Under the pieces are notes generated by a model. It was not told the DNA's origin. It did no database searches and saw only the letters and a program-made list of their open reading frames with translations. A stretch of DNA of 60,805 bases, counting the filler, from Globobulimina sp. (taxonomy: Eukaryota), in NCBI GenBank assembly GCA_003354225.1. It is 8 parts of 8 records of this genome, joined end to end, with 100 filler letters (N's around TTAATTAATTAA, not from the genome) between each part and the next. Parts side by side here need not be neighbours in the genome. Positions count along the whole stretch, not along the records: positions 30,495 to 38,011 come from PIVH01000148.1; 7 more parts are not named here. One strand, 5' to 3'. This document shows positions 7,474 through 53,315 of the stretch, one piece after another. Numbering within the stretch: position 1 is the stretch's first letter; each line of letters begins with the position of its first letter. The position numbers and the translations under genes were made by a program.

Positions 7474-7527
7474 CTATATAAAATTAATATATTTTATACT
7501 CACACTTTTTTCTTTTTTTTTTTTTTT

Positions 7528-9056: not shown

Positions 9057-9390
9057 TATATTTAATAAATTCTGATGTTTAATAATTCCGTTTCTTACTA
9101 ATAAATCGGAATAATTGATACGCGTCTAGACAAGATAGAATATTGAGCGATTTTGATTTTGGTGTACGGTTTGGTGGTGATATTCGATGACAAATGTTTG
9201 TAGGGAAAGTAAGGAATACTAAAATTAATTTAAATAATAAATAACACTGTGTAGGGCCAGAGAATTATTGTGTTAAGCACCCTCTGCCATGAATAATTCC
9301 CAGTCAATAAATGAACACAGAAAAGTTTTTAGATGAAAAGTTTCAAAAAAAAAAGATTAAAAAAACCTCTTGGAAAACTCTAACATCAAT

Positions 9391-15150: not shown

Positions 15151-15250
15151 NNNNNNNNNNNNNNNNNNNNNNNNNNNNNNNNNNNNNNNNNNNNTTAATT
15201 AATTAANNNNNNNNNNNNNNNNNNNNNNNNNNNNNNNNNNNNNNNNNNNN
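15151..15250. other. Artificial contig-join spacer
   Basis: N44-TTAATTAATTAA-N44. Confidence 0.98.
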
Positions 15251-18600: not shown

Positions 18601-21155
18601 TATGGCGTCACTCCGTTTGTAAAGATTGTAAAGAACATTTTTGTAATGATTGTTTAGTTGAATATCGTGGCAAAAGATGTGAAGATTGTGTCAATAACAA
18701 AGAAGTAAATGAGATGGCTGATATTATACATAATGCATTAAGGTCAATATATATGTTTGAGGTTTTTTTTGTGCCGAATGATAAAATATATTTGATTGCC
18801 AACACAATCGCAAGTTATGGGGTTGGTTATATTGTTAAATGTGGCAATTCCAAGACATGTCCAAGCAATGTTATTATTTTTGATAACAACTCGCAAATGT
18901 ATGCTAAAAAAGATTATAACAACTCACAAATTTACTATTATGAAGGACAATATTTTGATGAAAATAGAACATCCGCATTAATAAATAATCGTCGATTACG
19001 CATATTTTGTAATTATTGTACCACGCATTTAGTCCGCCAATGTTGTGTACCATTCTGTAACAGAAAAGATTCAGTTGCTGTCTGCGCACTGCATCCAGTG
19101 TGTCATAAATGTGCGAGTGGTGTGTCGGAAAAAAACGATGAACTTAAATGTTGTCGTCGTTGTAGGAAATCATTTTGTGCAGATTGTTGCATTACGTCCA
19201 TTGACTATATGAGAATGAGAGTCATGTGCTATTATTGTGAGTCATGTGCGGTTGAAATGGAAAAAAATGAAATAATTGATGTGTTGTTGAATGTATTAAA
19301 AAATGTTGTTGATGAATATATTATTGGTGTTGTAACAGATTATTGCATTGGTTATGTGTTTAAATGTGGTAATAATTATGACCAATGCGAGAATGATATA
19401 ATATTTGACAACAGATTTAAATTTAAAAAGGAACATGATAGGAATGACGAAAAAATATATTATTATTCAATTAACTCCAAACATGTAACAGGAAATAAGC
19501 AAACAGTCAACGATCCAACAGAGAAGAATCATAAATTGCGAATATTTTGTTCAAAATGTACAGGTATTCGGCTGTCAGTCTGTCTGAAGAATGCTCAATG
19601 TATCCATAAAGAATGTGGAATGTATCCAATATGTGACAATCATCCAAAATGTAAATCATGTCATAGTAATAGTCGGTATGCATTGTCAAAATGTAATATA
19701 TGTCTCGATTTTTTTTGTAGACACTGCAGATATGAGAATTCATCAACGTGTAAATCATGTGTTACAAAGCAAGAAATCAATGAATTGCGTAATATCATAT
19801 GTGAGGCATTGAAAACATTAAAATATATGCTTGAGAGTTATAATATATCGTTGCTTATTGCTGAATATTGCGTTGGTTTCGTATTTAAATGTGGTAATTT
19901 AAAGGATAACTGTGATACAAAGATAATATTTGATAATAAATTTCAATTTCATTCACGTAAAGACTGTGAGAATCGCGCAATAAACTATTATGAAGTTGAA
20001 TATTTAGCAGCCAACAGACCAACCATTTGTTTGCCAGATAATACTAAAAGACGGTTTCGAATATTTTGTAATGAGTGCTCATCAAATAAGATGGTGCGAT
20101 GTCCTGATTGTTGGCGAAGAGTGGATGTTTTACCGATATGTGGGCGACATCCAATTTGTAGTAACTGTGATAAAAAAGTGTTGCGTTCGGGAATAATAAA
20201 TTGTTGTATCTGCTTTGAATCTTATTGTGAAAGTTGTTGTTATTCGCTTGGCTATGACGAGAATGTTATTTATTGCAAAGTTTGTCTGAAGAACGTTGGT
20301 TATGAGGAGTTATACGGCGCCATTTATGCAATAATACGTAGATTAGGTTTAGGTTTTGATATAAATATTATTGGCATTATGATGGATTATTGCATGGGAT
20401 TTGCCTTTGAATGCGGTAATGTCGAAAGAAAGTGTGAAAATGATATTATTTTTGAAAATATGTTTCAATTTGGAAAAAAACACGATTTTACTATGCAAAA
20501 AGTATATTATTATCAAGTGAAATATGCGCGACATAATAAAGCAACAATATCAATGGATAATAAATTGTATAGAATATTTTGTGTAAACTGTACGAAGAGA
20601 ATTAAAAAATGTCGCGGATGTTATCAAAATAAAGAATCGGGTGAGATATCAGAATGTTGTGATCATCCAATATGTTCAAAATGTAATCAAATTATGTTTG
20701 CTTCGGAGACAAAATGTAAGAGTTGTTTCAAATATTTCTGTTATCCGCAATGTTGTATTGATATTGTTGGAAGATGTTATTGTATGCAATGTGCCATAAA
20801 TAAAGAATTTAACGATTTAATTGAATGTATAGCAAATTCGCAGTTAATATTAAAGGTAAATATGGATAGTGAAATTATAACTGTTTTGGCAGAGTATAGT
20901 GTCGGACTTATATTTCAATGTTGTAATAATATTCAGAAATGTAAGAAGAAAATCATTATTGATAATATTTGGCAATTTAAAAAGAAAATAAATTATGAAA
21001 ATAAAACAATAAAATATCGATATTTATCAAACATAGTTAAACGAAAAAGAAATAAAAGAGTAAAATTAATGAATAATAAACGATTAGTAATTTTATGTAA
21101 TGGTTGTTGTTTGGAATATAGATATATTAATAAACGCGGTGCATTGATTCGGTAA
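15666..21155 (+). CDS. Giant protein (about 1800 aa) with three SAM-like domains and about 8 Cys-rich repeats
   Basis: Exon 15666-15995 joins in frame to 16053 through GTTAAG..ACAG intron 15996-16052. SAM-like segments lie at about 16730-17280. RIFCxxC-containing units of about 170 aa run from about 17280 to the end. Confidence 0.8.
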
Positions 21156-22773: not shown

Positions 22774-22873
22774 NNNNNNNNNNNNNNNNNNNNNNNNNNN
22801 NNNNNNNNNNNNNNNNNTTAATTAATTAANNNNNNNNNNNNNNNNNNNNNNNNNNNNNNNNNNNNNNNNNNNN
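22774..22873. other. Artificial contig-join spacer
   Basis: N44-TTAATTAATTAA-N44. Confidence 0.98.
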
Positions 22874-30394: not shown

Positions 30395-30494
30395 NNNNNN
30401 NNNNNNNNNNNNNNNNNNNNNNNNNNNNNNNNNNNNNNTTAATTAATTAANNNNNNNNNNNNNNNNNNNNNNNNNNNNNNNNNNNNNNNNNNNN
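30395..30494. other. Artificial contig-join spacer
   Basis: N44-TTAATTAATTAA-N44. Confidence 0.98.
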
Positions 30495-33400
30495 TTGTTT
30501 AATAATACATTTTACCCTACTTGGAGATGGTTTTAACTTATAATCTATATTATATTTATTACAACAATTTATAGCGTGTTTTATCCAAGATTTTTTTCCT
30601 GGATTGTTGTAATATGTTATTAATTGTTCGTTAATAGCTAGTTTCACTAAATTATTATTTGTTAATGTTAATAAATGGATCAGATAGTTAATTGTTCTTT
30701 TATCTGCTTCCATTTGCATTGGCATGATGTCAGTTTCTCCATATAATACCGCTCTATGGGTATGTCTGGGAAGTTTAGCAATCATCCTAATGAATTCTCT
30801 TTGATGAACTTCAATTTTCTTAAAAGTGTTATTTGAATATTCTATAGCAGAAATACCATGTAACACTTTAGGTTGTACGTAAGTAGTCCATATTTTGGTG
30901 CCATATACGGCTTGTCGTGCTGTAGCTGATGCAGGTTGAAAGCATTTATATACTTCCTTCCTTGTTTTACCAGCTAATTCTCTTCTATGTTTTGATAGTA
31001 TATCTGCTCCTGATTTTGCAATAGTTATACCTAGATATTTAGCTTCACCTTCTTCTTTGATATTTATTGTTTTAGTCTCAGTTTCAGATATGTACATAGT
31101 TCCTAATTTCCATAATCTATCATTAATTACTTTTCTTCTTAAAGGAATAATCAAGCTTTTTGGCCCTGAAAATTCAATTTTCCATCTTTGCGCATAATTT
31201 CCTACTATTTTTAATAATTTAGTCATATTATATTCCGAAGAAGCAAATAATAACATATCATCCGCAAAAAATATGCCTGATATTATTTTTGAGCATTCAT
31301 CGGAACCTATTTCAATCCCTAAATCACTATTTTCTATTTCCCGTCCTAGGTCTGCTATATATAGCGCCCATAGACTGGGGGACATAGTGCATCCTTGTCG
31401 TAATCCGACTTCCATATCTAATGGTTCTGTTAATTGATCCTGGAACGATATTATTGCTTGAGGATTATGGTAGCTACTTTCAATAGCTCTTACTAATTTA
31501 TCTGGAAATCCATAATCTCTTAATTTTTTCCATAAACCTTTTCGCCATACTCTATCATAAGCTTTGCATATGTCAAGTAATGCTAAGGTACTATTTCTAG
31601 ATTTCGGTAATCTTTTTGCTTTTAAAACTGTATGTTGTATAACTAAAATACAGTCTTCAATTCTCTTATTGGCTCTAAAACCATGTTGAATATTACCTAA
31701 TATATTCTTTTCTTCAGTGATTTTTTCTAATCTTTTTGTAAGAATTGTTAGATACACTTTACATAAATTACATCCTAAACATAAGGTTCTGTAATTTGAT
31801 ATTTTACTTTTTGATCCTTTCTTATGTAATAATGTTACTTCTTGTACTTTTCCAATATCTGGATAGTACCCTGTATTATACCATCTATTGAATAGTAGTA
31901 ATACATTATCTTTCATTTCAGTTGGCCAATTTTTAATAAATTCTGGAGGAATATTAGTGGTTCCTGCAGAAGTGCCATTTTTTAATCTTGATATAGCTTC
32001 ATTTAACTCTTTCATCGTTAGATCTCTTTCTATATCGATTCGATCATTTCCTTTAATTATACCATCTAATCCTACTCTTTTCATTTCGTCATTAGCTTCA
32101 GGCCAAATTCCTAATGTAAAAATATCGTTCCAAAAATTTGATAAATGATTATTAATTTTTTCGGTTCCATTTATTGGTTCATTATTGTTGTCCAAAAGTG
32201 TAACCGGTTCTTTTACTCCTCTTTTTAAATGTTTCATCGTGTCATATAATTGATGAAATCTCCTTCTTGGATTAGCTAACCATTTATTATGCGCTTTTTC
32301 GACTCTAGCCATTTCAGTTTTTTGTCTTAATTCTCTTTGATCTTTTATTAATTCAAATAATTCTTTTAATAAAGCTTTCGAATCTCCATTATTATGTCTG
32401 AGATTCTTTCTTATATCAGTAATTTTGTTTTTTAATTTTTTTGCTCTATTTGATAGTCTTGCCTTTTTATTGGGTTTCTTCTTATACCCTATTGTTTGCT
32501 CGGCTGCAGTTGTCATATGATTTAATATTACATTTTCATCAAGTTCTTCCTCTTTAATTGTAGCTAATTGAATTAATTTGTCCCTATAAGGTTTCCAATT
32601 TAAGTCATCAGTTATATTCCATCTCTTTTTGTTATTATTAATATTTTGATTTGTAGATTTATTTATTTTATTTTGATATATATCAAATTCCGCAAATATG
32701 AAACAGTGATCAGCATTTCCTGTTCCTAATTGGGTATTTGTTTCATCAATATACATAGATTTTATTTTACTATAGGGAGAATTTAAAACCAAATCAAGTA
32801 CCTGAGGTTTTGTATTTTGTTTGTGAAAACCCCAGGTCCATAATCCTTTAGTTTTATTTGAGTCATTTGTTAATGTAAGATTTGAGTTATTTATAAACTC
32901 TCTAATTAGATATCCATTGTCATTTATTTCAATATGATTACCTTTAATGCCATGGATGTCATTTCCTATATGTCCATTAAAATCTCCCACCATAACAATT
33001 TCATAATTTTGTCTCATACACCATTTTATGTGGTTAATTAGTCTGAGACTTAATTCAAAATTAAATGAATGGGTAGTATTATCTCTATTACTTTGATTCT
33101 TGAAATATACAGTACAGATTGCCACTGGGCCTACATTTTGGCATAGTACCCATAAATAGTGGTTGCTTATGTCGTCATTAAAACCATCTATATCTAATTT
33201 AGTTGGTTTAATCTTATTATGACCCCATATGCTAATTCCGCCTGTTTTAGTACCAGTTTGCATCTTATGAAATCCTACATATTCATCGAAATCATGAATG
33301 TCTAACACAGTTTTTAATCTGGTTTCAACAAAACACAACACAGAAGGTTTTAATTTATTAATATTATCATCAATCAGATCAAATTTATTTTTAATAGAAC

Positions 33401-33524
33401 AGATATTATTATACAGTATTGATATATGTTTGAAATCTTTAGATTTTTCATCATTTTGAACATCATCATCTTTTGTTTCATTATCTTTACTATGTTGATC
33501 ATCATCATCATCTTGGCGTTCCAT
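30495..33524 (-). CDS. LINE ORF2: apurinic endonuclease + reverse transcriptase (frame open from 33623), 3' partial
   Basis: APE motifs ILYNN, VET, GDFNGH, LDL and ADH; RT motifs NYRTL, QHGFR, DICKAYDRV, GLRQGC.MSP, FADD and YLG. Confidence 0.95.
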
Positions 33525-33613
33525 TTTTGTTACATAAGGTGTAGAATAATTAATATTATTAATATTATTTACTAAGTTATTATTAATGTATGTTTGGGAT
33601 TTGCCGTCCCTTT

Positions 33614-36600
33614 TTAGTTTTCCTTAGGATCCAATTGTAACGATTTATTCGAAATTCCAAATGTCCATGTTAATAAAGCTTCTCTTACTATTTCAACAGC
33701 TAATACTTTCTTACCATTTTTGGTTAAGTGTATGCCATATAGAAATACTTTTAATATATCTTCTGATGAAGACATGGTTTTTACTTTCTGCAGCTGTCTT
33801 GCAGCTTGCATTATTGCATAAGTTAATTGTATATATCTAATAGGTAATACATTTTCTACTGCATATGAATGCACTTTTTGTGCCATATATCTTTCGATTT
33901 CTAATGATAAATTCATATGTCCCGGATCGTCAATATTGCGCAAATATTCAGATTGTCCACCTCCTTGGATAGGTTGGGTGAAATTTAATAATATAGCACA
34001 ATTTGGATTTTTCTTACTAATATCATGACATATTTCAAAAGCCGTATGTAATATTTTATCGGCATATTTAATACTCCTTTCTTTAATTTGTTTTGGAGTG
34101 ATATTGTCATTAGTCATATCGGATTTCCAGCCATGTATTATGTCGCTGTAATCCATAACATATTTTAATACTATGACTTTTTCGTCACCTTTAATAAGAG
34201 TTTCTACTATCGTATGGGTTTGTCGTAACCGTAGACTTACTGCACCTTTTCCTATAGATTTTACTCCACCATATATTGGTAATCTTCGTAAAAATGTTTC
34301 ACTAAATACTTCTGTAATAGGGTCTTCTAGACCTACAGAGGTAGAGTCACCGATCATGAATATTTTCAGATACGGAAATCTTAATTTTTGGATATTAATG
34401 GATGACTGGAAAGATTCAAAGATTCTTTCTTTTAATTCATTTAATGCTAATCCACTAATAGTACCTCTTTCTCCTTCACTGCCATAAATTCTTAGGCATT
34501 CCGGAGCCCATCCATCCTTTTCATTTCCTAAATCATGATCAGTGTATGGTTTTAATACGTTAGCTTCAAGATTATTAGCTGGTATATATTTCTTTTGATA
34601 AATGATCGTGGTCATAATCGCTCTTATAGCTTCTCGATCTTCTTCTAATTTTGTTTTTCTTTCCTCTATTAATTTCTCCTGTTTACTCTTTTTACTAATA
34701 GTAGAATGTGTCGAAGATGCAGCGCTTTTGACTGAATTCGATCTTGATCTTTGTTCTCCATATGTTGGATCATATTCGTCATTACTGGTTAATTTAGGGG
34801 TTCTTCTTCTTGATGGTCTTGGTTTACTTGATGAGGCATCATAGGAACTTGGGAAATCTGGTGAGATGCTTTTTGCAGATATTCCAGATTCTGATGCCAT
34901 TGATATTACTGATGCCGATCTTGATGATTTAGCTGATGATGTTCTTGGTCTTTTACCACTACTAATTGTTGATATTCCTTGTTCAAGGTCTTTCATATTT
35001 ATATCTCTTGATGAGTCCGTTACTGCTGACCATCCATAATCCGAAATATGAATCGTAGATGTATCATCAAAGCTTTGTGCTGCTGTTAATTTGTCTTCTT
35101 TACTTTTTAATTTTGCTAATTTTTCTTTGACCTTTTTATTTGCATCAGCTAATTTTTGTTTAATCCAAGGAAGATTCGTAATATTGAATTTGGGATTATT
35201 CCTCATATCAAAATGATAAAATCTTGTTTCTCTTAATTTATCAAAATTTCCTTTTGCTAATGGTTGTTTTGATGTGCAATTGCAAATATTTAATTCTAAT
35301 TGTGTTTTAATTTCCTTTTCATTATCTAAATGTTTAATTGTCCAGAGTTGACGTAATTCTTCGAATTCTTTGTCAATTCCTTGTCTTACTATTTTAGGAG
35401 ATTCAGTATATTTGGAAATAAATTGAGAGCAAAAGTTTCCTATTACATTACCAATTAAATTTCCTTCGTAATTTTCTCCTTCTAATTTGTCAATAAATAT
35501 ATTTTTATTTCGGGCATTATATCCGATGCCCAATTCTTTATTTGTTGATAAAAACAAGAATGTCACATCTTCATAATGTCCAATTTTTCCTAATAATGTT
35601 GCGAATTTTTGATCATATTCGATTCTAATTCGTAACCAGTCATTAAATTTTGTTGATTTATACGCTGCATTAATTTCTTCTGAATAATCTTGATAATTTT
35701 TAATAGGAAGATCTTCTAATAGTGATGTATAGATTTCATAAGTCATCCGTTGAGTTAATTTCCATACTAAATCCCAGTCTTTACATGTGATGGCCATTTG
35801 TACTTTTAAGTAATGGTCAAAACATGTATAAGTAACACTACCTTCGTAGTCCCAGGGAAGGGTATCATCTTCATCAATTTTAGATTCAAAAGGGAATACA
35901 CCTTCTGTTAATGATTCATAACCCCATGAAAATGGGTCATTTTTCGTACCTCCTACTAAAAATTCGTTATGTAGTCTTAATGGTTTTTCTTGAATTAGTA
36001 CATTATCTTCAGATCTCTCTTCTGTTGTAGAAGTTGCCGTCGGATATTGTATTGATAAATTTTTTACTAATATTTCTAATTCATTAATACGTCGTTCATA
36101 ATCGTCATTAGTATTATTTGATATTCCCAAATCTCTATTGACTCCTTTTTGGATTTCTTCATCTAATAGAGATTTGTATCCTAATAACTCGTTTGATATT
36201 ATTCTTAATTGATTTTGTAAATTAGTTACTCTTGAATCATCTATTTTACATTCATGATCAGAAGAATCTTGTAAATGTTTTTTTAGATTCTCTTTCGTAG
36301 ATATATTATGAGCTTGTGCTTTACTAGCCATACGCAAATTATTAGTTATGAAAACCGAATTTACTGAAGCAAATTTGGTCAAATTAACCAAGGATTGCAT
36401 AGAAGAGTGGCACGTGGCCGTTAATTTAATACTAATTTCGTAAAACATTTTATGAATTGTCATTAAAGCATTATAAATTTCTGTACCTTTTGGTACATTA
36501 TTTTCACTTTCTAATATTAATTTCATAATCTCACTATGTTCTTGTAACATTTGAGACATGTTTTCTCTAGTTGCATGTGTATTTAATATTAATTCAGATA

Positions 36601-37951
36601 ATTGAAGTCCTGATTGTTCAATAAAGGAATGTCTATCTTTAGCGATACCTTTATTGTTATCACTGACAAACGTATCCTTTAATAAATTTTCATTTTGAGC
36701 AGAGAATTTATAGGTTCTGTTACTCGAAACAGTAATATTTTTATTTTCTGTTAATGTTACTGCTTCATCAATTAATTTTTTGTATTCATCTTCTCTTGGA
36801 GATAAATTAGATGGAACCATAGTTAATCTATCGTCTTCTTGTTGACCTAGTCCCATAGGCGTTGTGCCTTGATTAGGGATTTCGGTCGAAGTACTAATAT
36901 TACTATTATTCAAATTGTCGTTTGGGTCCTGCATATTACCTGAAACAAAAACATTATTAGATGCAGAATTATTCATAGCTAAATCTAATTCATCACATTT
37001 AATCATATCTTTCACACGATCAGCTTCTTGTAAATTTTTCACAATTACTGACGTCGTTCGTTTTTTATTTAGTGATGAATGAGTATTTTCGTACTTTTTA
37101 TACATATTACGAACTTTTTGTTCAGATTTACTATAATATACGGTACTCAATTTCTTATTTCTATGTGGAGTATTACTCATAATAAAATAATAATAAAAAA
37201 ATTTAATAAAATTTAATTTACTTACTAATTTTGATTTCTTAATATTTGGAAATCTTCTTTTACTTGATATTCTTTTATTAAAGCCAGATTCGGAAAACAA
37301 AAAATAAGGCACGATGATTTCACCCGTATTCAATAAATCACCCGTATAATCGCTTTGTTTTCTTCGAGAATGACGAGAAACACGAAAACTTTTTTTGAAG
37401 TGGTGTGTACCGTATCGTCGCTCAGCGTTCGGGTTACTGTATAAATATTTGGTTTTTGGTTTAATGTCAACGTTTTTACTAAGGACGTTACTAACACGAG
37501 CTCCAATTGGTGCACCATTTTCATACAAACAGTGCCCATTTGATTTCGTCGTCGTTTTTGTCCTAATATTCTTTGATAAATATCTCAAAAATTTTGAAAT
37601 TTTTCCCATTTTTTTTTGATTTAAAGTACTTAAATTACTATATTTAACATCTTTGTCATAGGAATTAATAAAATTCTTGATATTCGTAGTGGGAGCTATT
37701 TTTTTGTGTCCCTCCTTACTTTTTTCATGTTGTATTTTGAGCTCCGAAGGAATACATTTTGATGGCTCAGTGCGAACTATTTCTGAGTTTTCATGTAAAC
37801 TGCGCCCATCTGTTCCAGTATTATTAATCGATATATTAATTGAAATATTTTTAGCCTTTAAATTACTAGGTATTTTAATGATTATACTTTCATCCATGTC
37901 TGAAGGTAAGCTATTTGAGATTTTTTCACTTATAGCTTTTGGCCCAACCAA
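33614..37951 (-). CDS. LINE ORF1 (1445 aa or more): coiled coil, NADAR-like domain (about 35420-35965), Ser-rich linker, SGNH-like domain (about 33650-34370)
   Basis: NADAR-like DPFSWGY..TYTCFDHYLKVQMA..ELGIG..GNLIGNVI; SGNH-like IFMIGDS..YGIHLTKNGKKVLA. Confidence 0.85.
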   Translation of the reverse strand: MVGPKAISEKISNSLPSDMDESIIIKIPSNLKAKNISINISINNTGTDGRSLHENSEIVRTEPSKCIPSELKIQHEKSKEGHKKIAPTTNIKNFINSYDKDVKYSNLSTLNQKKMGKISKFLRYLSKNIRTKTTTKSNGHCLYENGAPIGARVSNVLSKNVDIKPKTKYLYSNPNAERRYGTHHFKKSFRVSRHSRRKQSDYTGDLLNTGEIIVPYFLFSESGFNKRISSKRRFPNIKKSKLVSKLNFIKFFYYYFIMSNTPHRNKKLSTVYYSKSEQKVRNMYKKYENTHSSLNKKRTTSVIVKNLQEADRVKDMIKCDELDLAMNNSASNNVFVSGNMQDPNDNLNNSNISTSTEIPNQGTTPMGLGQQEDDRLTMVPSNLSPREDEYKKLIDEAVTLTENKNITVSSNRTYKFSAQNENLLKDTFVSDNNKGIAKDRHSFIEQSGLQLSELILNTHATRENMSQMLQEHSEIMKLILESENNVPKGTEIYNALMTIHKMFYEISIKLTATCHSSMQSLVNLTKFASVNSVFITNNLRMASKAQAHNISTKENLKKHLQDSSDHECKIDDSRVTNLQNQLRIISNELLGYKSLLDEEIQKGVNRDLGISNNTNDDYERRINELEILVKNLSIQYPTATSTTEERSEDNVLIQEKPLRLHNEFLVGGTKNDPFSWGYESLTEGVFPFESKIDEDDTLPWDYEGSVTYTCFDHYLKVQMAITCKDWDLVWKLTQRMTYEIYTSLLEDLPIKNYQDYSEEINAAYKSTKFNDWLRIRIEYDQKFATLLGKIGHYEDVTFLFLSTNKELGIGYNARNKNIFIDKLEGENYEGNLIGNVIGNFCSQFISKYTESPKIVRQGIDKEFEELRQLWTIKHLDNEKEIKTQLELNICNCTSKQPLAKGNFDKLRETRFYHFDMRNNPKFNITNLPWIKQKLADANKKVKEKLAKLKSKEDKLTAAQSFDDTSTIHISDYGWSAVTDSSRDINMKDLEQGISTISSGKRPRTSSAKSSRSASVISMASESGISAKSISPDFPSSYDASSSKPRPSRRRTPKLTSNDEYDPTYGEQRSRSNSVKSAASSTHSTISKKSKQEKLIEERKTKLEEDREAIRAIMTTIIYQKKYIPANNLEANVLKPYTDHDLGNEKDGWAPECLRIYGSEGERGTISGLALNELKERIFESFQSSINIQKLRFPYLKIFMIGDSTSVGLEDPITEVFSETFLRRLPIYGGVKSIGKGAVSLRLRQTHTIVETLIKGDEKVIVLKYVMDYSDIIHGWKSDMTNDNITPKQIKERSIKYADKILHTAFEICHDISKKNPNCAILLNFTQPIQGGGQSEYLRNIDDPGHMNLSLEIERYMAQKVHSYAVENVLPIRYIQLTYAIMQAARQLQKVKTMSSSEDILKVFLYGIHLTKNGKKVLAVEIVREALLTWTFGISNKSLQLDPKEN

Positions 37952-38011
37952 ATTTTGGGTAGGATCCGTATTCCCTGTATTATTTAGGGTTGGTAATGGT
38001 CGAGCTACTGG

Positions 38012-38111
38012 NNNNNNNNNNNNNNNNNNNNNNNNNNNNNNNNNNNNNNNNNNNNTTAATTAATTAANNNNNNNNNNNNNNNNNNNNNNNNNNNNNNNNN
38101 NNNNNNNNNNN
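38012..38111. other. Artificial contig-join spacer
   Basis: N44-TTAATTAATTAA-N44. Confidence 0.98.
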
Positions 38112-40753
38112 TCAAATCCGACTCTAATTTCTCATTCAATTGCTTCAAACCATTTATTTCATATTTCAAATCATTAATTTTTACATTAAATTGCGAGATT
38201 ATGTTTGCTTCCCTCTCCGCAATGGATTTGCTTAATTGTTTATTTAATTCTTTTAAGTTTTCAATTTCCACCAATTTATGCTCTAACTGGGTCTGTGTAT
38301 TATTTGTATGATTGCTATCAATATCGGATTGTTGTCGACTGAGTAATAATTCAGATTGCAATTCGTCAATGATTTCATTTTCAGGCCGTCGTAATGTCTC
38401 CAATTCGTCGCGGAGCTCATCCCTTTCTTCGCGGAGCTGATGATACTGACTCTCAAATAGTCGTTTTTCATCATCACTTTCCTCCCATTTTTGTTGCAAA
38501 ACAGCCAATTTATTCTTTATAAAATCATTATAAAACACCAATTTCTTATCACATTCATTCTTAAACGAGATAAATTTCGACTTTTCATTTTCAAATATCT
38601 GATTGATGGACAATCGATCATTTTTAATCAGGATTAGCTTCGATTGCAATTTATGCAAATTCATCTGTAATAAGACATTGTTATTGCTTTCCTCGCAAAC
38701 ACCGCCCACTGAGGGCTCCAACGACGACGCTTTGAACGATTCCGTGATCTTATTTTGCTGTTCAATGTTCAATCGCAACTCTTGTATTTGCTGTTGTAAC
38801 TGGTCGATGGTAACACGCGATTCTTGCAGCTCGCGACTCAATTTATGAGCGGCGTCGCTTTCTGCTCTCTGCTTATATGCTAACAATTGATTATTTAATG
38901 CATTTACGGTGATGGATAACTGCTGATTTTCCATCAACACATCGCGAGCGTTGTTATTTAGCGACGACTCATAAAACTCGATCTTCTGCGCAAACATCTT
39001 ATTCTCCTCACTCAACCGATCGATCTCTGTTTGCATGGAATGGAAGTCTTTGTGCTTTGCATTCAATTCTTGCTGCAAACTCTTGGATATATGCGTGGCT
39101 TTGCGTAGTTTGCATGCAATCACTTCGTTTTCGCACTTAATTTTATTCATTGGCGTCGAAAAACTCTGCAGTGCATAATATAGGTATATTACACGCATAT
39201 CATTCTGGTCTATGTGCGTATTACTTAACGGAGTGTCGAGTACGAGGCAAATTGTGAATGATTGCCGTTTTCATCCGCTTCCTGGCGGGCGACCCATTCA
39301 ACTCAATGGCCACGGAATGCCTCCGTCTTTTGCCCAACACGCTGTTCTTCGGTCGCCTATTACTGATATTATTATCTTCCTCTTCTTTCATATCGACATT
39401 CATATTGTCATTGACAGCGCCTTTATTCATACAAATAGCTTTTAAATGTCGTATCTCCCGCTCATACTTAGCTCGTTCGGCCGCAAAGTCGCTGTTAACA
39501 TTATTCCCGTCGCGCTTAAGAGTGAGACCATTGTCACCGCCCACAGCGCTTTGCGTTAATTGCCGCTGCAACTCTTGGATATAATTCTTCTGCCGTTTGA
39601 TGACCACGGCGTCGTCGACGATCTCCGTCACAGTGGCACAGTTCTTCACTTCCTTGGCTCTGGAAGCAAAGCCCAGCGTCGACACAGACTCTTCACTGTG
39701 TATATCCGCCGGGGTGATGGTGCAGATCACCACGGTCTTGCTATTGCCGCCCAGCGCAGGCTCTAAAATGTGCGTCAACTTACTGTCTCGATATGGAATG
39801 TGCTCGTTTGGGCTCTTGGTGCCGGTGCTGATTTCGGCCAACTTCTTGATCACAATGCCCAAAGTCAACAGGGATTTGTTTATATGGCCGCCTTCTTTCA
39901 GCCTCTTGCCGCTGGCATCCGTTTTTTTGGCCCGTTCGCTGCCTGCTAAGTCCACTATGTTTAGTATGGAGGACAGGACCGCACCGTCATAGTCTTGCGA
40001 GTTGGTCGTGTTTTTCTTGCGAGATTCCAATTGGATTTTAAATATTGTGTGCGAACGGGACGACTGATCGTTCATTTTGGTGGCACCCATGTTCCTGTTC
40101 GACATGCCTTGCTTTAATATGTCGAAGATTTTGGAGGCGTCGGTGATGGATTCCGTGGTCAGGCCGTGGACTATGGGCCGGTGGAAATTGTCCATGGATA
40201 TCTTCAAATGGATGTTAGTTGGCGATAAGAGGTCTTTTATGGATTCATTGTAGATTTCTAGATAAGATACGCTTAAATTGAATTCGCGGTCGGTTTGCTG
40301 GGAAATGTGGTTAAAAAAACAGTGGATATTCGGCATTTATGCGCTTTATTTGGTTGCTTTTTTAACTTTGGAAAGCGAGCGAAAAATGAATTTGATCGCA
40401 CGATGGATGATACCGTCGTCGTTGCCGGAACCCATCATCGTGAAGGTTTTGCCAGAGGAGGTTTGGCCGTATGCAAAGATGGTGCCGTTGAAGCCATCCA
40501 TGAAGGAATGGATGACCTGCGACACTGAGTCATTGTATATGTCTTTGGTGGTTTGATGCGGTGCGTAGACACGATCAAAGGAGTATTTTTTTGAGGAGGT
40601 TTGATTCATTGAATGGATCACGTTGTTTTGGTGATCGATTGTCCATACAATTTGACTGTTGGCTTCGATTTCTTTTGAATTTAACGGCCGAACACGAATC
40701 ACAACCTTTAATGTCGTTTGTACGGTGTTTTCTTTGCTTTCCACGCTAGACAT
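38112..40753 (-). CDS. Kinesin motor protein, CENP-E/kinesin-7-like, multi-exon, 3' partial
   Basis: VVIRVRP, FAYGQTSSGKT, SYLEIYNE, SSRSH, VDLAGSER, HIPYRDSKLT and LGGNSKT, followed by a long coiled coil. Confidence 0.92.
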
Positions 40754-45624: not shown

Positions 45625-45724
45625 NNNNNNNNNNNNNNNNNNNNNNNNNNNNNNNNNNNNNNNNNNNNTTAATTAATTAANNNNNNNNNNNNNNNNNNNN
45701 NNNNNNNNNNNNNNNNNNNNNNNN
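45625..45724. other. Artificial contig-join spacer
   Basis: N44-TTAATTAATTAA-N44. Confidence 0.98.
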
Positions 45725-45746
45725 TAAATTAAATAATAAATTTGAA

Positions 45747-48700
45747 ATGATATATCTGGAGCGTCAAATTAATAAATCTGAAGTGCTGCCTTTTAGACAA
45801 GACCAAATGTTACACAAACCAGAAAACGTAAAAACCTACAGTAATATTAGAGGAGTAAATACGGTAGAAATCAATACTTTGGTCCGTGTATACCTTCAAA
45901 AATTAAAAGGCAAAATAGAAAGTTCTGGAAAGAAAGGAGAATTTTGGGCTGACGACGGACACAAACAGCACGAAAAAAGGAAAAATCCACAAAAATTGCA
46001 AAGAAAACAGGAATCAAAAGAGCGAATAGGAAGAAGCGAAGCAGTAAGTATATTAATTTTTTTAAATTCCAAATTTATATGTTGTCAAAATCATCAATAT
46101 ATGCGTGTATGTAAGATGAGTAAATCTGAGACGAAAAATAAATTAGGCAATAATAGAAATGATAGATATTCAAGTAGATCAAGTAGTAGAAAAGGATATT
46201 CGTCCGTACGAAAAACGACGGTAAAAACTAAGTCAAAATTAATATTAAAATTTGAAAATGCCGAAAAAGTCAAGACGGAAAACGGTACTCTATCCGTTTC
46301 CAGTCAAGACTCAAAAGCTAACATAGGTTATATAAAAACGATGAGAAAATCATTAAAAAGGCAACGATATGCAGATAATAAAACTATTAAAAATGTAGTA
46401 GAAAATTTATTAGACAACGTTGAGGATAAGTTAAATTCTTCCGAAGGAGATGTAGGGAATAACGTAGAACTTATAGAAGAAATAATAAATATAACTCCAA
46501 TAGGAGCGCGTCCGTATCAAAGTACACCGAATACAATCTCAAGTATATTAATAGGTAGTCGTACAGTAGATCATAATTCGTTAGGTATTAGAGACCTTAT
46601 ACCGAATACGGTATGGACACCGTATATAGTAGATTATAATGCAGATAAATCAAATCAGAATATAAACTGTACGCCGAATACGGTAAGTACATCGAATATG
46701 GTAGATTATAATGTAGATACATTAAATCAGAATATAAATGTTACGACGAATATGATAGACAATATAAACCGTACGTCAAAAATAGTATGTACACCGAATA
46801 AGGTACGTACGCTGAATACGGTAGATGATAATAATCTAAGTCAAATTGACGTGACGGTAGATAATATGTCATATGTATTAAATAATATTAGTGATACATC
46901 ACATATATATGACGATATATTAGAATTGCCATGCACACCAGATAATACTATTATACAGATTGAAGCAGATACACCAAGAAAAGGACCACAGAGACAAATA
47001 AGAATGTATCATTTAGTAATTAATAAATTAGCGGCAATAGAAATTGAATTGAAGTTGAAGCCAGAAACAGAAATAGACAAAGTTACAGATCAAATCATTA
47101 GAGACACACTAATAGAAATAGATGCAATATATAGAAATGTAGAATTATTTGATATAGAAAATAGTATAATACTGTGTAAACAAATAAATAATAAACTAAA
47201 TAAGTTAGACGACATAATATACGGTATATTAGAGAAAATAGGAGTTAAAACTAAAAATCATATATGTGATGAATTAGGTAACATGAATCTTTCATTTTGT
47301 GAACTTAAAAATTTAAATATTTCAGGTATGGATAAGGAGAAAGATCCAAATTTGGAGACAACAACATCAAGCGGTACGGCAGCTGTCGGAGACCCAGAAC
47401 TTACTGAGGCGACCAATAGCATGTCGACCGCGGCAATTACTACAGAATCACAGAAAAATGTAGATAAAAATGTAGAAAATTTAACCACAGACAATACTAC
47501 AGAATCAGAAATGACAGATGAAACGGCGACAGAAGACACAAATAATTTTGATAAATCTGCGTCAATTAGAGCTATACCAGAAAATCCACATATGTACCCA
47601 GACTTTCTGGAGAGATACGTATATCCAACGAGCTTAACAGAATTCTTAGATGATATAAATACAGGTAAAGATTATATTTATGAAACTGATGAGGGAAAGA
47701 AATATAGAATGAAAAATAACACCCCTCCTATAGATATATTAGATATGTCAGTTAAAGATAAAGAATTGAATGATCTTAGAGCCCACTTTATAACCCAAGT
47801 AGCTTGGCTAATGGGATATGAAAGTGAAGAAGGTAGAATTCATATCAATAATAATACTGCAATCATAAGGAAAATTAGAACTTTTATTGATGAATGCTGT
47901 GAGAAATCTACATTACCAGTACAGGGGACTCACATGGCAGCCATCTTAAAAACAATAGAAGACCATCAAATATTATCCATGAGCAAATCTATGGACACAG
48001 ACGAAACTTTGTTGAAAACTATCAAAGAATTAACACAAATGATATTAAGAAATAATGAATCAGTTTTTACAATAAATAAAGCAATTAGAACTACGATATC
48101 AAATCAGAAAAAAGTTGAAAATAATATTAAGGCTGTGTCAACTTCAGTAAGTGTAGAACATAGTGAACAGAAAAAGAAAAACGACGTATTTACGTTAAAT
48201 TTCACAAAAATGTCTAAACAACTTGAACAATTAAATTTAGACAATATCAAATACAAGAAAGAAAATGTGGAATTAAAAGCGGAAGTAGAAAAAAATAAAT
48301 CGGAATTGGGTAAGATAAAGGTGCTGATCGGTCAGTTAAGCGGAACCTCCATCCAGCAACAACGACCTGTATCTGCACCAACAACACCCTCGGTACATAC
48401 AAAGAATATTGAAGATTTAAAAATTGAAATAGAAAAAAATAGAACTGAAATGGGTAATATAAGGATGATGATCGGTCAGTTAAGTGGAGTCCAACAACAA
48501 CGACCTGAACCCACACCTATAATACCTCCTGTTGAAGAAATGCCACAATTAAGAGACAAAAAAGATATTTTAATTGGAGGATGTAAAGGATGTCCTTTCA
48601 ACTTCGATTATTTAACAGAAATTAGAATTGTAACTAAAATGACAGAAGATGCTAAAGATGAATTTGTATCATATCATAGCTTTAACCACTATATTATGAT

Positions 48701-51011
48701 GCAAATGGCTATTGCTTGTTTAGACAAACAATTAATTAGACGATTAGCAGTTATAAAAAATAAATTATATTTCGAATATATACTGCAAAGATGTCCTATA
48801 GAAAAATATCAAGAAAATAAAGACCAATTTACAGCCCAATGGATAGCTGAACATTATAAACAATTCATATTATGTATAATGAGGAGAAATTTAGCCATGA
48901 GTGCTTTATGTGGTAAAATTGGCGCTGAAGAACTAACCCCAAAATTTTTAATCTCTGATAAAAATTTGGGTATTGGTTATGACGCTAATACAGAAAATAT
49001 ATATTTAAATCAATTAGAAATAAATTCAGCTGGCTCAAATTTACTAGGCAAAATTGTACATGATTTATGTGCAGATTCAAAAGATAATTATTTAAAATTA
49101 GACAAAAATAATAAAGATCAAACAGATATAGAATTTAAGCAATATTGTGAATATTGGAGTATTATGGATACTAAAGATAATGAAATAATAAGTAATGCTA
49201 GATTAGCAGCAATCAGAAATAATATATGGATTAAAAGCGTTACGTTAGTAGGCGATTACGACAATATAAGAAAAGAAAGATTATCGTTCGCAGATAAACA
49301 ATTTGAACCAAATATGAAATTAATAGAAGCTCCTTGGATAACAAAAATATCAAGATCGGAATTGAAAGAAGTCCAAAAAGGGGTTAGAAAGAAATATAGA
49401 GAAAATTCAAATGAATATAAAAAAGAATTAGAAATACAATTGCAACTGTTACGAAAAGAAAAAATCGAACATGATGCAATTAAATTATCAGAATCAGATA
49501 CAAGTAGTACGGATTTATTTAATCCAATGTCAGTAATATTAGGTAAAAGTTCTGCAACAGATTTAGATCCTGATATAGAAATATTAGATAAAGTAGATGA
49601 TGATAATTCAGGACAAAATTTAGATTTAGATAGAAATGTTCTAAGTGCAGCTTCATCTGCAAGTTATGATGGAGAGGATGTATTTAGAAAACCAGAGCCA
49701 TGGGAATTTCAGAGAAAATCACGAGGTCTAAGAAGAGGTGGGAGATATCCTAGAGGAAACGATAGGATCTCGCCTCCTTTTCGACCACCTCCACAAGATC
49801 AAGATGATAGAAGATCAACATCACGAGATAGATATGATTCAGAAAAACCTGCTTATTCCTTTGTAAATAGAGGTGGACATCAAGTACAATGGTCTGCAGC
49901 AAAAATTTTTGGTTTATCCAAACGAAAGACATATGGATCACAAGATAGTATAACCTCAGATGAACATAAATTTCAGAAAATTATGAGTGCAACAGAAAAA
50001 TTAGATATAGCTAAAGGCAGATGCAGAAAAATTCCATATAAAAGAGAGTTCAATGAAGACTTTCAATATCATAACAAAACATTCTTAGATATAACAGCAT
50101 TTTATATAGATAAAGATGTACACGGTGATAAATGCAAAAATATAGACGGAGCAGATATAAAAGGGATACCTATAATCCCTTTACCATTAGAAATTATGGC
50201 AGATAGAAAAGGTATTAATAAATTTGGACCTAGATATGATACAAGAATAACATATAAAATGCCAGGTAATTTGCAATTATCAATAATAGGAGATTCAACA
50301 ACATATGGATTAGAATATGTTCTAGATCTTACAGCAAAAGAATCTGAAGTAAAACCCAATGTACATTATTTAGGCATGAAATCATCAGGAAGTGCCTTAT
50401 TAAGTTGTAGAGTCAGACAAATGGCACCCGTTATCCCTGCATTAACAATGGGAGACGAGGATGTCATTGTGATAAAAGGCATATTAGATTTAGCAGATAT
50501 TGTACATACATATTATGGTGCAGGTAAAGTCCAAGATTCTTGGAAACCTTTTGTAGATGAAATGGCAGCAGATATATCTAGAATTACACACAATATACAT
50601 GGTATACATAACAATGTATTAATGCTGATTAATTTTACAACACCAATATTATCAAATAAAAATTATATGACAGATAATAATGATCCTGGATTTTTGATAT
50701 TAATCCAGGAAATAGAAAATTATTTAGCAGATAGAGTAAATGAATTATCAAGACAATTTAAAATTCCAGTTAGATATATTATGCTTGCTTCAGCAATTAT
50801 AGAACAAACCTATAAATTAAAAAAAGAAGCTGAAAAGGAAGCACAAGAACTAATTTCAATAGAAGATTCCTTAGGTAAATTTGTATCAGGTATTAAATTG
50901 ACAAGAAATGGAAACAAGATTTTGGCCAATGAAATATTTAGAGAAATGGTCACTGGTTGGACCTCTTTTGTTGATGCGAAGATTTTATCCGGAAAGAAGT
51001 CGGAAAACTAG
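45747..51011 (+). CDS. LINE ORF1 (1754 aa): repeats, coiled coil, NADAR-like domain (about 48560-49080), SGNH-like domain (about 50270-50960)
   Basis: NADAR-like CPFNFDY..SYHSFNHYIMMQMA..DKNLGIG..GSNLLGKIVHDL; SGNH-like SIIGDST..SGIKLTRNGNKILANEI. Confidence 0.85.
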   Translation: MIYLERQINKSEVLPFRQDQMLHKPENVKTYSNIRGVNTVEINTLVRVYLQKLKGKIESSGKKGEFWADDGHKQHEKRKNPQKLQRKQESKERIGRSEAVSILIFLNSKFICCQNHQYMRVCKMSKSETKNKLGNNRNDRYSSRSSSRKGYSSVRKTTVKTKSKLILKFENAEKVKTENGTLSVSSQDSKANIGYIKTMRKSLKRQRYADNKTIKNVVENLLDNVEDKLNSSEGDVGNNVELIEEIINITPIGARPYQSTPNTISSILIGSRTVDHNSLGIRDLIPNTVWTPYIVDYNADKSNQNINCTPNTVSTSNMVDYNVDTLNQNINVTTNMIDNINRTSKIVCTPNKVRTLNTVDDNNLSQIDVTVDNMSYVLNNISDTSHIYDDILELPCTPDNTIIQIEADTPRKGPQRQIRMYHLVINKLAAIEIELKLKPETEIDKVTDQIIRDTLIEIDAIYRNVELFDIENSIILCKQINNKLNKLDDIIYGILEKIGVKTKNHICDELGNMNLSFCELKNLNISGMDKEKDPNLETTTSSGTAAVGDPELTEATNSMSTAAITTESQKNVDKNVENLTTDNTTESEMTDETATEDTNNFDKSASIRAIPENPHMYPDFLERYVYPTSLTEFLDDINTGKDYIYETDEGKKYRMKNNTPPIDILDMSVKDKELNDLRAHFITQVAWLMGYESEEGRIHINNNTAIIRKIRTFIDECCEKSTLPVQGTHMAAILKTIEDHQILSMSKSMDTDETLLKTIKELTQMILRNNESVFTINKAIRTTISNQKKVENNIKAVSTSVSVEHSEQKKKNDVFTLNFTKMSKQLEQLNLDNIKYKKENVELKAEVEKNKSELGKIKVLIGQLSGTSIQQQRPVSAPTTPSVHTKNIEDLKIEIEKNRTEMGNIRMMIGQLSGVQQQRPEPTPIIPPVEEMPQLRDKKDILIGGCKGCPFNFDYLTEIRIVTKMTEDAKDEFVSYHSFNHYIMMQMAIACLDKQLIRRLAVIKNKLYFEYILQRCPIEKYQENKDQFTAQWIAEHYKQFILCIMRRNLAMSALCGKIGAEELTPKFLISDKNLGIGYDANTENIYLNQLEINSAGSNLLGKIVHDLCADSKDNYLKLDKNNKDQTDIEFKQYCEYWSIMDTKDNEIISNARLAAIRNNIWIKSVTLVGDYDNIRKERLSFADKQFEPNMKLIEAPWITKISRSELKEVQKGVRKKYRENSNEYKKELEIQLQLLRKEKIEHDAIKLSESDTSSTDLFNPMSVILGKSSATDLDPDIEILDKVDDDNSGQNLDLDRNVLSAASSASYDGEDVFRKPEPWEFQRKSRGLRRGGRYPRGNDRISPPFRPPPQDQDDRRSTSRDRYDSEKPAYSFVNRGGHQVQWSAAKIFGLSKRKTYGSQDSITSDEHKFQKIMSATEKLDIAKGRCRKIPYKREFNEDFQYHNKTFLDITAFYIDKDVHGDKCKNIDGADIKGIPIIPLPLEIMADRKGINKFGPRYDTRITYKMPGNLQLSIIGDSTTYGLEYVLDLTAKESEVKPNVHYLGMKSSGSALLSCRVRQMAPVIPALTMGDEDVIVIKGILDLADIVHTYYGAGKVQDSWKPFVDEMAADISRITHNIHGIHNNVLMLINFTTPILSNKNYMTDNNDPGFLILIQEIENYLADRVNELSRQFKIPVRYIMLASAIIEQTYKLKKEAEKEAQELISIEDSLGKFVSGIKLTRNGNKILANEIFREMVTGWTSFVDAKILSGKKSEN
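46527..46860 (+). repeat. Degenerate coding repeats (about 72-75 bp unit) in ORF1
   Basis: ccgaata starts at 46527, 46602, 46674 and 46794; PNTV..VDYN..NQNIN peptide units. Confidence 0.75.
48260..48540 (+). repeat. About 144-bp internal duplication in ORF1 coiled coil
   Basis: EKNKSELGKIKVLIGQLSG..QQQRP vs EKNRTEMGNIRMMIGQLSG.QQQRP. Confidence 0.8.
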
Positions 51012-53215
51012 ATAAGGTCAGTACAATAACTAGTTTTCACAATAATCGAAACATTAATAATACTCATATTTCAGATGCTCAGAATATAAACAAACCACAA
51101 AGATGGTTCAAAGAAAAAAGATCCAAAGATAAGAAATTATATTTGGATCAAAATATTGATATATTATATAATAATGTATTATCTATGAATTCTAAAATAG
51201 ATATTATAAATGAACATTTAAAAGAAATAAATATAGATATTATATGTTGTGTTGAAACAAGATACAAAAACATACTAGACACACATAAAATACAGGGATA
51301 TGATAGTTTCCACAAAATGCAACCTGATTGCAAAACAGGAGGTATTAGTGTATGGGCAAAAGTAGATTCTAAATCTACTAGATTAGATATCGATGATATA
51401 GACGACGAAATTGCGACAAATTATTTATGGATATTATGTCAAAATAGAAATATGACTGCTATATGTACTGTATATTTAAGAAACCAAGGAGATAAAAAGG
51501 CTATGGATACAAATACTAAAATATGTCAAAGACTAGCACAGCATATTAACTGGTGCAAAATTAGGAATTATAATATTATAATAATAGGTGATTTCAATGG
51601 ACATATCGGAAACGATGATTTAGGAATTAGTAATAATCATGAAGCAATAAATAGTAATGGCCATATTGTACGTAATTTTATTAAAAATACAAATATGATA
51701 TTGGCAAATAACGATAAAGAAACCTCAGGTACATGGACTTGGGGATATCGTAGAAAGAACACTAAACCTCAAATACTAGACTTAATATTAAGGAGCGAAA
51801 AAGTCATAAATTTCGACACTATTATAGACGAAGAAAATATTAGATATGGAAATGGAAATAAAGACCATTGTTTTATATATGGAAAATTTAGAGTAAAATT
51901 TAAACCTCTAGATGAAACCATTAAAAGTAAAAAACAAAGATGGAATATTAAAGATGACACAGATTGGATCCCTTTTAAAGAGAATATTAAAATAAACTTA
52001 GAAAATAGACAAAAACTAAACGATATTGATGAGACTGAAATAATAGATATTATAGGAAAATCGGGAGAAGATACAATAGGATATAAAAGTGATAAAATAA
52101 AAAAACCTAGAGAATCAAAACAAATCCAACAAATTTCTCTGGAGATTAGAAATATTAGAAAGAAATTACGCCATAAATTAGAATTTAAAGGGAATTTAAT
52201 TAATGAATTATTTATGAAAATAAGAGAAAAAAAACAAATAATAATGAGGGCAGAAATGGCTAGAATAGAAAAAGCACATGATAAATGGATTAAAAACCCT
52301 AAAAGAAAATTTCATCAATTATACGATACTATGAAAACTCTAAAACGAGGAGTAGTAGAAAAAGTTACATTGATAGATGAAGATAAGAATCCAATTATAG
52401 GTGAAGAGAAGATTAAAACTCATATAGCAGAATTTTGGACTGATATATTTACTCTAGGTATATGGCCTGAGGCCAATGATAATATGAAAAGATTAGGACT
52501 CAGTAATATTATCAATGGTGCAGATAAATTAGATTTAGAAAATGAAATAACAACTAAAGAATTAAAAGAAGCAATCAATAAATTAAAAAATAATACATCA
52601 TCCGGTTCAACGAATTTACCACCAGAATTTCTCAAAAATTGGCCAATAGAAATGATAGAAACAGTAAAAGTATTATTTAATAAATGGTATGATACAAGCT
52701 ATTTTCCAGATATAGGTAAAACCCAAGAAGTGACATTATTACACAAAAAAGGTTCAAAAAGTAAAATTAAAAATTACAGAACCCTAAGTTTAGGATGTAA
52801 TCTCTGTAAATTATATTTACATATATTAACGAAGAGATTGGAGTCAATTACAGAAAAGAAAAATATATTAGGATATATCCAACATGGATTTAGAGCAAAT
52901 AAGAGAATTGAAGATTGTATATTGGTTATTCAACATACAATACAAAGAGCTAGAAAATTAAGAGCATCAGAATCTCCAACTATAGCATTATTAGATATAT
53001 GTAAAGCATATGATAGAGTTTGGAGAGAAGGATTATGGAAAAAATTAAGAGAATATGGCTTTCCAGATAAATTAGTAGATGCAATCAAGAGTAGCTACCA
53101 AAATCCAGGAGCTACTATAACATTCCAAGGTATAAAAACTGACAGACTAAAAATGCCAGTAGGATTAAGACAAGGTTGTACAATGTCTCCAACCTTATGG
53201 GCATTATATATATCA
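51002..53215 (+). CDS. LINE ORF2 (APE + RT), no ATG upstream of the endonuclease, 3' partial
   Basis: Frame open from 50975; ILYNN, VETR, GDFNGH, KDH, DICKAYDRV and GLRQGCTMSP. Confidence 0.92.
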
Positions 53216-53315
53216 NNNNNNNNNNNNNNNNNNNNNNNNNNNNNNNNNNNNNNNNNNNNTTAATTAATTAANNNNNNNNNNNNNNNNNNNNNNNNNNNNN
53301 NNNNNNNNNNNNNNN
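53216..53315. other. Artificial contig-join spacer
   Basis: N44-TTAATTAATTAA-N44. Confidence 0.98.

Follow-up and report, generated by a model that had tools for sequence, protein, structure and literature searches.

The window analysed here is a stretch of 60,805 bases from Globobulimina sp. (assembly GCA_003354225.1) that consists of eight unlinked pieces of about 7.5 kb each and does not represent a single locus. Two of the pieces are filled by copies of a long interspersed nuclear element (LINE): element 1 on the minus strand of 30495-38011 and element 2 on the plus strand of 45725-53215. They lie on separate pieces and are not neighbours, and each copy is cut at both ends by the piece that holds it. 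The second open reading frame (ORF2) of both elements matches the Pfam profile RVT_1 (PF00078), that of element 2 also matches Exo_endo_phos (PF03372) and PF14529, and a relative (P0005) has an ORF2 whose match to human L1 ORF2p (E 1.4e-23) extends over both the endonuclease and the reverse transcriptase. By these sequence matches elements 1 and 2 are apurinic endonuclease (APE)-type LINEs, that is, non-LTR (long terminal repeat) retrotransposons. In both elements ORF1 ends on the heptamer G_GAA_AAC and ORF2 continues in the -1 frame. The conservation of this heptamer at synonymous sites, and an ORF2 frame that is open from the junction and has no conserved AUG codon, suggest that low-efficiency -1 frameshifting may produce an ORF1-ORF2 fusion protein.

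The junction of element 1 reads, on the minus strand, GAT CCT AAG GAA AAC TAA AAA GGG ACG GCA AAT CCC. ORF1 (33617..38011, at least 1465 codons, cut by the end of the piece) contains a middle domain that is conserved and, at the C-terminus, a domain that is SGNH/GDSL-like by predicted fold. The heptamer (33617..33623), whose GAA and AAC codons would occupy the P and A sites, respectively, in the proposed -1 shift, is directly followed by the ORF1 stop codon TAA (33614..33616), and the base after the stop (+4) is A. The ORF2 frame is closed by a TAA (33624..33626) directly upstream of the heptamer, so the overlap between ORF1 and ORF2 consists of the 7-nt heptamer only. From 33623 this frame is open through an APE-type endonuclease and a reverse transcriptase to the end of the piece (30495..33623, 1043 codons, cut by the end; 30447..33623 when counted from stop to stop). 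In element 2, on the plus strand, the junction reads TCC GGA AAG AAG TCG GAA AAC TAG ATA AGG, with the heptamer at 51002..51008 and the ORF1 stop TAG at 51009..51011, again followed by A. ORF1 (45725..51008) has at least 1761 codons and is cut by the start of the piece, and the -1 frame of ORF2 (50975..53215) has 747 codons and is cut by the end.

These readings confirm the initial annotation in that ORF1 of element 1 ends AAG GAA AAC TAA, that ORF2 lies in the -1 frame, is closed by the TAA at 33624-33626 and is then open into the endonuclease, and that a second element carries the same heptamer in the same position (TCG GAA AAC TAG at 51002-51011). The statement that ORF2 opens exactly on the heptamer holds for element 1 only, as the frame of element 2 opens at 50975, 9 codons upstream of it. 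The flanks of the two elements, first described as unrelated, are instead homologous and highly diverged, with 55% amino acid identity in ORF2 and 27% over the last approximately 800 residues of ORF1. The ten-letter pattern GGAAAACTA[AG] is found in the whole window only at the two LINE junctions, and plain GGAAAAC occurs 10 times when both strands are counted.

A scan of species-representative genomes gave four contigs with relatives (L001-L004), all from a single record. The content of the contigs marks them as eukaryotic sequence that was binned with a bacterial metagenome-assembled genome. L001 is a full-length element with ORF1 at 657-6395 (1913 codons from stop to stop, first in-frame ATG noticed at about 672) and ORF2 at 6380-10126. 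Its junction, CGG GAA AAC TAT TAA, again contains the heptamer, with its phase unchanged and one codon ahead of the stop, and the -1 frame opens two codons upstream of the heptamer. As the sole further -1 junction available as DNA, L001 thus agrees with the expectation that heptamer and phase are conserved in other copies. In L002 and L003, ORF1 and ORF2 share one frame and are separated by a single stop codon (AAU UGA CUA GAC and UUA UAA CAA UUA CAG, respectively), and L004 contains no junction. The five elements with a junction all have intact ORFs, with lengths from 747 to 1913 codons.

The heptamer is present in the same phase at all three junctions with a -1 ORF2 (element 1, element 2 and L001). 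Pairwise ORF1 identity among these elements is only 27-28%, so that synonymous sites are saturated; of the 62 columns in which all three agree in amino acid, only 22 share the codon. Only a fraction of 0.12, 0.14 and 0.36 of Asn, in the respective elements, is encoded by AAC, and the first G of the heptamer ends a different rare codon in each: AAG (0.12 of Lys), TCG (0.069 of Ser) and CGG (0.042 of Arg). The product of the codon frequencies is about 2e-6, a figure in which shared descent is ignored. When the last 300 codons of ORF1 are aligned by codon, 269 of 858 ungapped columns are identical in the three elements, and no other identical run is as long as the heptamer (7 nt, or 9 nt with the following TA), which lies in a stretch where the proteins align poorly. 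The next longest runs (6, 6 and 6 nt) are found in the conserved NEIxRE region. The heptamer is accordingly held at synonymous sites, which is a constraint at the nucleotide level.

An exhaustive HMMER search with the ORF1 tail against 1.84 billion representative proteins rendered 7 relatives only, one of which is ORF1 of L001 and one a fragment without the C-terminus. Among the other five, four end in -EN (P0128, P0130, P0132 and P0133, with the C-termini ...ILSEN, ...NETEN, ...AYTEN and ...LMPEN) and one, P0131, ends in ...YQGNE. At a guess, the -QGNE end would fit CAG GGA AAC GAA, which contains the canonical G_GGA_AAC. The EN residues are not a fixed C-terminus since L001 ends in ENY. Codon usage, the length of the identical run and the -EN ends of the protein-only relatives, all read from sequence comparison, together indicate that neither chance nor descent accounts for the conservation of the heptamer.

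In all five elements the start of the open ORF2 frame lies 0-9 codons ahead of the ORF1 stop or immediately behind it. The frame continues through a spacer of at least 55 codons, rich in N and K and little conserved, which is open to the endonuclease in every element; the chance of a 60-codon open stretch in this composition is 0.001-0.005 per element. In element 1 the spacer (33420..33616, minus strand) is N-rich, extends from the junction to the ILYNN motif (codon 69) and has a corresponding chance of about 0.002. None of the five junctions has an AUG, and the nearest one in the ORF2 frame is at least 34 codons away. The first AUG is found at codon 34 in element 1, 71 in element 2, 44 in L001, 122 in L002 and 64 in L003. 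In element 2 and L003 it follows the ILYNN motif at the start of the endonuclease (by eight codons in element 2), and element 2, L002 and L003 have no AUG ahead of the conserved endonuclease start. Position 4 of the PF03372 profile aligns to residue 67 of ORF2 in element 2, so a start at its AUG (codon 71) would probably remove the N-terminal catalytic Asn. A PDB sequence search with the endonuclease region of element 2 gave only a chance match to a repeat protein, and no alignment of the catalytic Asn to the L1 endonuclease. The importance of this residue in another LINE is shown by the N17A mutant of Zorro3 (PMC1965478).

Because the spacer is open from the junction and the position of the first AUG is unconserved, entry of ribosomes into the ORF2 frame takes place at the junction rather than at a conserved AUG. 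An independent start of ORF2 at the ATG at 33524, which the initial annotation named as an outcome that would speak against frameshifting, therefore falls away for the family as a whole: the first AUG is not conserved, and in element 2 and L003 it lies past the endonuclease start.

The two relatives with both ORFs in one frame carry known leaky stop contexts at the ORF1/ORF2 boundary, UGA CUAG in L002 and UAA CAAUUA in L003. The motifs UGA_CUAG and stop_CARYYA are reported as validated for readthrough, with UAA as the least efficient stop in combination with CARYYA, in the relevant part of the paper (PMC4132726); readthrough in the host of these elements is a prediction. The base at +4 is C, which makes termination weak, in both in-frame elements and a purine in the three -1 elements, as expected if the in-frame elements need readthrough and the -1 elements do not. 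In the ORF2 tree, element 1 and L001 are placed outside a clade (100/99) of P0006, L002, element 2 and L003, in which element 2 is sister to L003 (93/94). Elements with the heptamer are thus found on either side of the deepest split in the family, and at least one origin of the in-frame state falls within the family.

The A-site tetramer A_AAC, which is also used by coronaviruses, astroviruses and PEG10, lies in the 0-frame phase within the ORF1/ORF2 overlap in all three elements with a -1 ORF2. The downstream ORF is in the -1 frame and has no conserved start codon of its own, as in canonical -1 programmed ribosomal frameshifting. From this comparison we infer that a minority of the ribosomes on the very long ORF1 may shift by one base into the -1 frame at G_GAA_AAC, immediately ahead of the ORF1 stop, so that the P-site tRNA-Glu would move from GAA to GGA and the A-site tRNA-Asn from AAC to AAA. 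Translation would then go on as ...E-N-L-K-R-D... into the endonuclease and reverse transcriptase and yield a gag-pol-like fusion, which in element 1, by tandem slippage, would read ...LQLDPKEN-LKRDGKSQT.... Most ribosomes would terminate and release the ORF1 protein alone. L002 and L003 would reach the fusion by readthrough of a single leaky in-frame stop. Without help from RNA structure the efficiency would probably be low, which may suit a LINE if, as we assume, little ORF2 protein is needed. The fusion of more than 2400 amino acids first proposed is a lower bound set by the ends of the pieces, and in L001 the product would by arithmetic have about 3,150 amino acids. Overall, low-efficiency -1 frameshifting, with readthrough in the in-frame relatives, is considered slightly more probable than not to be the route to ORF2 in this family.

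The same heptamer directly before the ORF1 stop has been proposed, by prediction only, as a -1 site into the RNA-dependent RNA polymerase of Fusagraviridae and related double-stranded RNA viruses (PMC4881467). According to the section concerned, the viruses with a GGAAAAC site include FpV2, FpV3, MpRV2, PgV2 and PMeV, AAAC is the conserved core, and only the GAAAAAC site of BcRV1 is said to have been tested, in E. coli (PMC4881467). Both the heptamer and its place relative to the stop are identical to those of the LINEs (GGAAAAC UAG, as in element 2), and the polymerase ORF is likewise in the -1 frame. The viruses differ in that candidate downstream structures are reported in the part of the paper on these sites, whereas none is predicted here.

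Several points weigh against frameshifting. The heptamer begins with GGA, so the three identical bases at the P site (X_XXY) are lacking in G_GAA; after the slip the GAA-decoding tRNA would face GGA with a G.U at the middle position. The motif is thus a non-canonical heptamer, and its first description as X_XXY_YYZ does not hold in the strict form. Folding of the 120 nt that follow the heptamer is no more stable than that of shuffled sequences (z = -0.51, +0.58 and +1.12), the first 40 nt fold at -4.6, 0.0 and -0.5 kcal/mol, and RNAalifold gave 0 consensus pairs across element 1, element 2 and L001, pseudoknots being outside the scope of the tools. The GGGA/UCCC hairpin noted in element 1 (33596..33610, minus strand, 6 nt after the heptamer) does exist, with 4 bp and a 7-nt loop, but it is weak (-3.1 kcal/mol), and element 2 and L001 lack a comparable one. 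This energy, the lack of conservation and the shuffle scores led us to reject the hairpin or another downstream structure as stimulator, and the hairpin is probably not one. Slippage would be inefficient, since no stimulator is predicted. Moreover, the heptamer is found in three DNA junctions only, all related by descent, and two junctions have in-frame stops. The four relatives ending in -EN are represented by protein sequence, which leaves their codons unseen, and the fusagravirus sites are themselves predicted only. Switching between -1 and 0 frame within one family is also allowed by a reinitiation that disregards frame, and ORF1-ORF2 fusions are not known from the studied LINEs, whose ORF2 translation a recoding review describes as some form of reinitiation (PMC5009743). 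The gag-pol-like fusion proposed from the start has therefore gained from the conserved heptamer and phase and the unconserved AUG, and has lost from the missing structure and the non-canonical heptamer.

Termination-coupled reinitiation would explain the entry at the junction in another way. A 40S (or 80S) ribosome would stay on the RNA and restart within a few codons at a non-AUG codon in any frame, which would give a separate ORF2 protein, and the conserved motif would be part of the restart signal. Such a mechanism accounts for ORF2 translation that starts at the junction with no need for an AUG, for the tolerance of -1 and 0-frame layouts in the family and for the lack of a predicted frameshift-stimulating structure. 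It is also favoured over bypassing for mammalian LINEs in the review passage on the subject (PMC5009743) and is offered as an alternative to frameshifting for LINEs of Paramecium in the part of that study on ORF arrangement (PMC5405496). On the other hand, neither an AUG nor a consistent near-cognate codon is found at or near the stop in any of the five junctions. Reinitiation also leaves unexplained that an in-phase, frameshift-competent A_AAC heptamer is held at synonymous sites, that the two in-frame relatives have textbook leaky contexts, and that C at +4 is confined to them. Considering both sides, reinitiation is regarded as a possible but rather unlikely explanation.

The motif might also not be a signal at all. 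The EN tail could be kept for a protein reason or by descent, with ORF2 translated independently from an internal AUG or an internal ribosome entry site, or the elements could be dead copies with a 1-nt deletion in what was a single ORF. In favour of this, element 1 and L001 have an in-frame AUG ahead of the endonuclease domain (codons 34 and 44), and the sample is small with all elements related. The retention of rare synonymous codons in three lineages, the ENY end of L001, the spacer that is open from the junction in all five elements and the lack of an AUG before the endonuclease start in element 2, L002 and L003 all speak against it, and five elements with intact ORFs of 747 to 1913 codons argue against decay. 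This explanation is judged very unlikely. A correction at the RNA level appears still less probable and is given hardly any weight. Transcriptional slippage could add an A in the A-run, since one extra A in GGAAAAC would bring the two ORFs into one frame, or ORF2 could gain another start on a spliced subgenomic RNA; AG dinucleotides are found near the junction, and splice-donor-like sequences after it in element 2 and L002. However, such donor-like sequences are not found in element 1 or L001, and the run of four A is much shorter than known sites of transcriptional slippage. Contigs of four sequencing runs were examined, and the single one that spans the junction (from run X1) shows no difference there, that is, neither insertion nor deletion. 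All explanations other than -1 frameshifting and reinitiation are, even when taken together, considered improbable.

If -1 frameshifting is the mechanism, the family resembles retroviruses and LTR elements. These produce gag-pol fusions in a small fixed ratio, either by -1 frameshifting (for example on G_GGA_AAC in PEG10) or by stop codon readthrough. The likeness consists in a structural or RNA-binding ORF followed by a polymerase ORF that is in the -1 frame or behind a leaky stop, and in the A_AAC tetramer. The differences are that the LINEs, which are target-primed elements, have no protease to cleave the fusion, that the P-site triplet is non-canonical and that no pseudoknot is predicted. 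For human L1, termination-reinitiation has been proposed for ORF2, and in SART1 reinitiation has reportedly been shown at a stop/start overlap of the UAAUG type. The present elements share with these LINEs a bicistronic RNA and ORF2 translation that is coupled to the end of ORF1, but have no AUG at the stop, a heptamer or a leaky stop in its place and a spacer that is open from the junction.

Closer in layout are the LINEs of Paramecium, for which +1 frameshifting or reinitiation (groups 1 and 2) and stop readthrough (group 3) were inferred from ORF arrangement in the part of the study that concerns them (PMC5405496). These are likewise protist LINEs with both layouts among related elements; their shift is in the +1 direction, and that part of the study describes no conserved site for it, unlike the -1 shift with a conserved heptamer proposed here. 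The recoding review, in the passages on these elements, mentions frameshifting within the gag gene of HeT-A and ascribes LINE ORF2 translation to some form of reinitiation (PMC5009743). In a literature search, which did not cover subscription journals and supplements, no report was found of a slippery heptamer for -1 frameshifting that is conserved where ORF1 and ORF2 of a LINE meet.

ORF1 in this family is unusually long, with about 1,908 amino acids in L001, and its N-terminal half is open and unconserved between copies. The ORF1 tail was taken as 33617-34516 (minus strand) and 50109-51008 (plus strand) in the window, 5496-6395 in L001 and 3-599 in L002, and a GDS motif is found within the last approximately 250 residues. 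The tail gave no Pfam hit, and no hit in a sequence search of PDB. An AlphaFold model built on an eight-sequence alignment has a mean predicted local confidence (pLDDT) of 69.9 and a predicted TM-score (pTM) of 0.76. With this model, Foldseek retrieved 48 hits in PDB (E <= 0.001), and many of these, at TM-scores of 0.43-0.63 when normalised by the target, are esterases or lipases of the GDSL/SGNH type. By its predicted fold the tail thus resembles GDSL/SGNH esterases, which are reportedly also carried by ORF1 proteins of other LINEs (elements of the CR1/L2 group). In element 2 and L002 the His of block V (GIHLT) is replaced by Lys (GIKLT / GIKLN), and in the light of the model the domain may therefore be catalytically inactive in some members. 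The upstream ORF of L003 is rich in repeats and coiled coil and is without the esterase-like tail. P0128 has the middle domain of ORF1 and no esterase-like domain and ends in ...KILSEN, which can be compared with ...KILSGKKSEN in element 2; it might represent a variant that has an internal deletion, or lacks the esterase, and has retained the motif of the junction. Upstream of ORF1 in L001, at approximately 150-520, several copies of a motif of about 45 nt (ggttattgaccctcc...gataacgccct) were spotted by eye, and this could be a repeated 5' untranslated or promoter region.

Other searches gave few additional relatives. A word-indexed protein search with the ORF1-tail profile found P0130 only, and an ORF1-tail search of the genome that carries L001 found nothing beyond two contigs already known there. 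Metagenomes scanned with the ORF2 alignment gave 80 loci, none above 34% identity in the best segment; these belong to other retroelement families and none has the heptamer junction. Scans of viral contigs with the ORF2 and ORF1 alignments found no relatives. The four sequencing runs gave no further copies of the junction, with nothing placed from X3 and one short piece of low likeness from X4. A contig from X2, a marine-sediment metagenome run, matches 33367-33544 of the window (ORF2) with 1 difference in 178 nt, which places a near-identical copy in an independent data set. In three distant metagenome LINEs with 24-29% identical ORF2, a long upstream ORF and an endonuclease/reverse transcriptase ORF lie in one frame with a single TAG between them (L008 2759-2761, L045 5588-5590 and L085 892-894; L045 and L085 are identical at the junction). 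The layout with a single in-frame stop may be widespread among environmental LINEs.

The remaining pieces of the window encode a kinesin motor, actin, a GH38 glycosidase and a Kelch/SAM protein in long ORFs that seem to be free of introns, and G+C is about 28-40% across the pieces. These eukaryotic-type ORFs and the low G+C point to an AT-rich, intron-poor eukaryote as source. A 1716-codon open frame at 16005-21155 (plus strand) matches no Pfam profile and is not similar to the LINE proteins. The pieces are joined by seven linkers of the form N44-TTAATTAATTAA-N44 (7528-7627, 15151-15250, 22774-22873, 30395-30494, 38012-38111, 45625-45724 and 53216-53315), and ORFs that seem to cross them, such as 38056..39270, were dismissed as artefacts of the join.

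How ORF2 is translated from the bicistronic RNA of LINEs is a long-standing question, and the studied cases point to unconventional reinitiation. The present family offers a simple and testable alternative, in that the heptamer is conserved, an AUG is not, and sister elements carry leaky stops in frame, although the evidence for a fusion is comparative only and comes from few sequences. The chances are about even that this LINE lineage makes its reverse transcriptase as a fusion of about 3,000 amino acids by a structure-independent -1 frameshift, with the signal swapped for readthrough at least once. If so, recoding and not reinitiation would be the conserved route to ORF2, and the ORF1 and ORF2 proteins would be linked on the RNA that encodes them. 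A shift site that works without structure beside a stop codon would also bear on the many predicted GGAAAAC sites in viruses. LINEs would then join retroviruses and LTR elements in gag-pol-type recoding, and the covalent link between ORF1 and ORF2 would be a direct mechanism for cis-preference.

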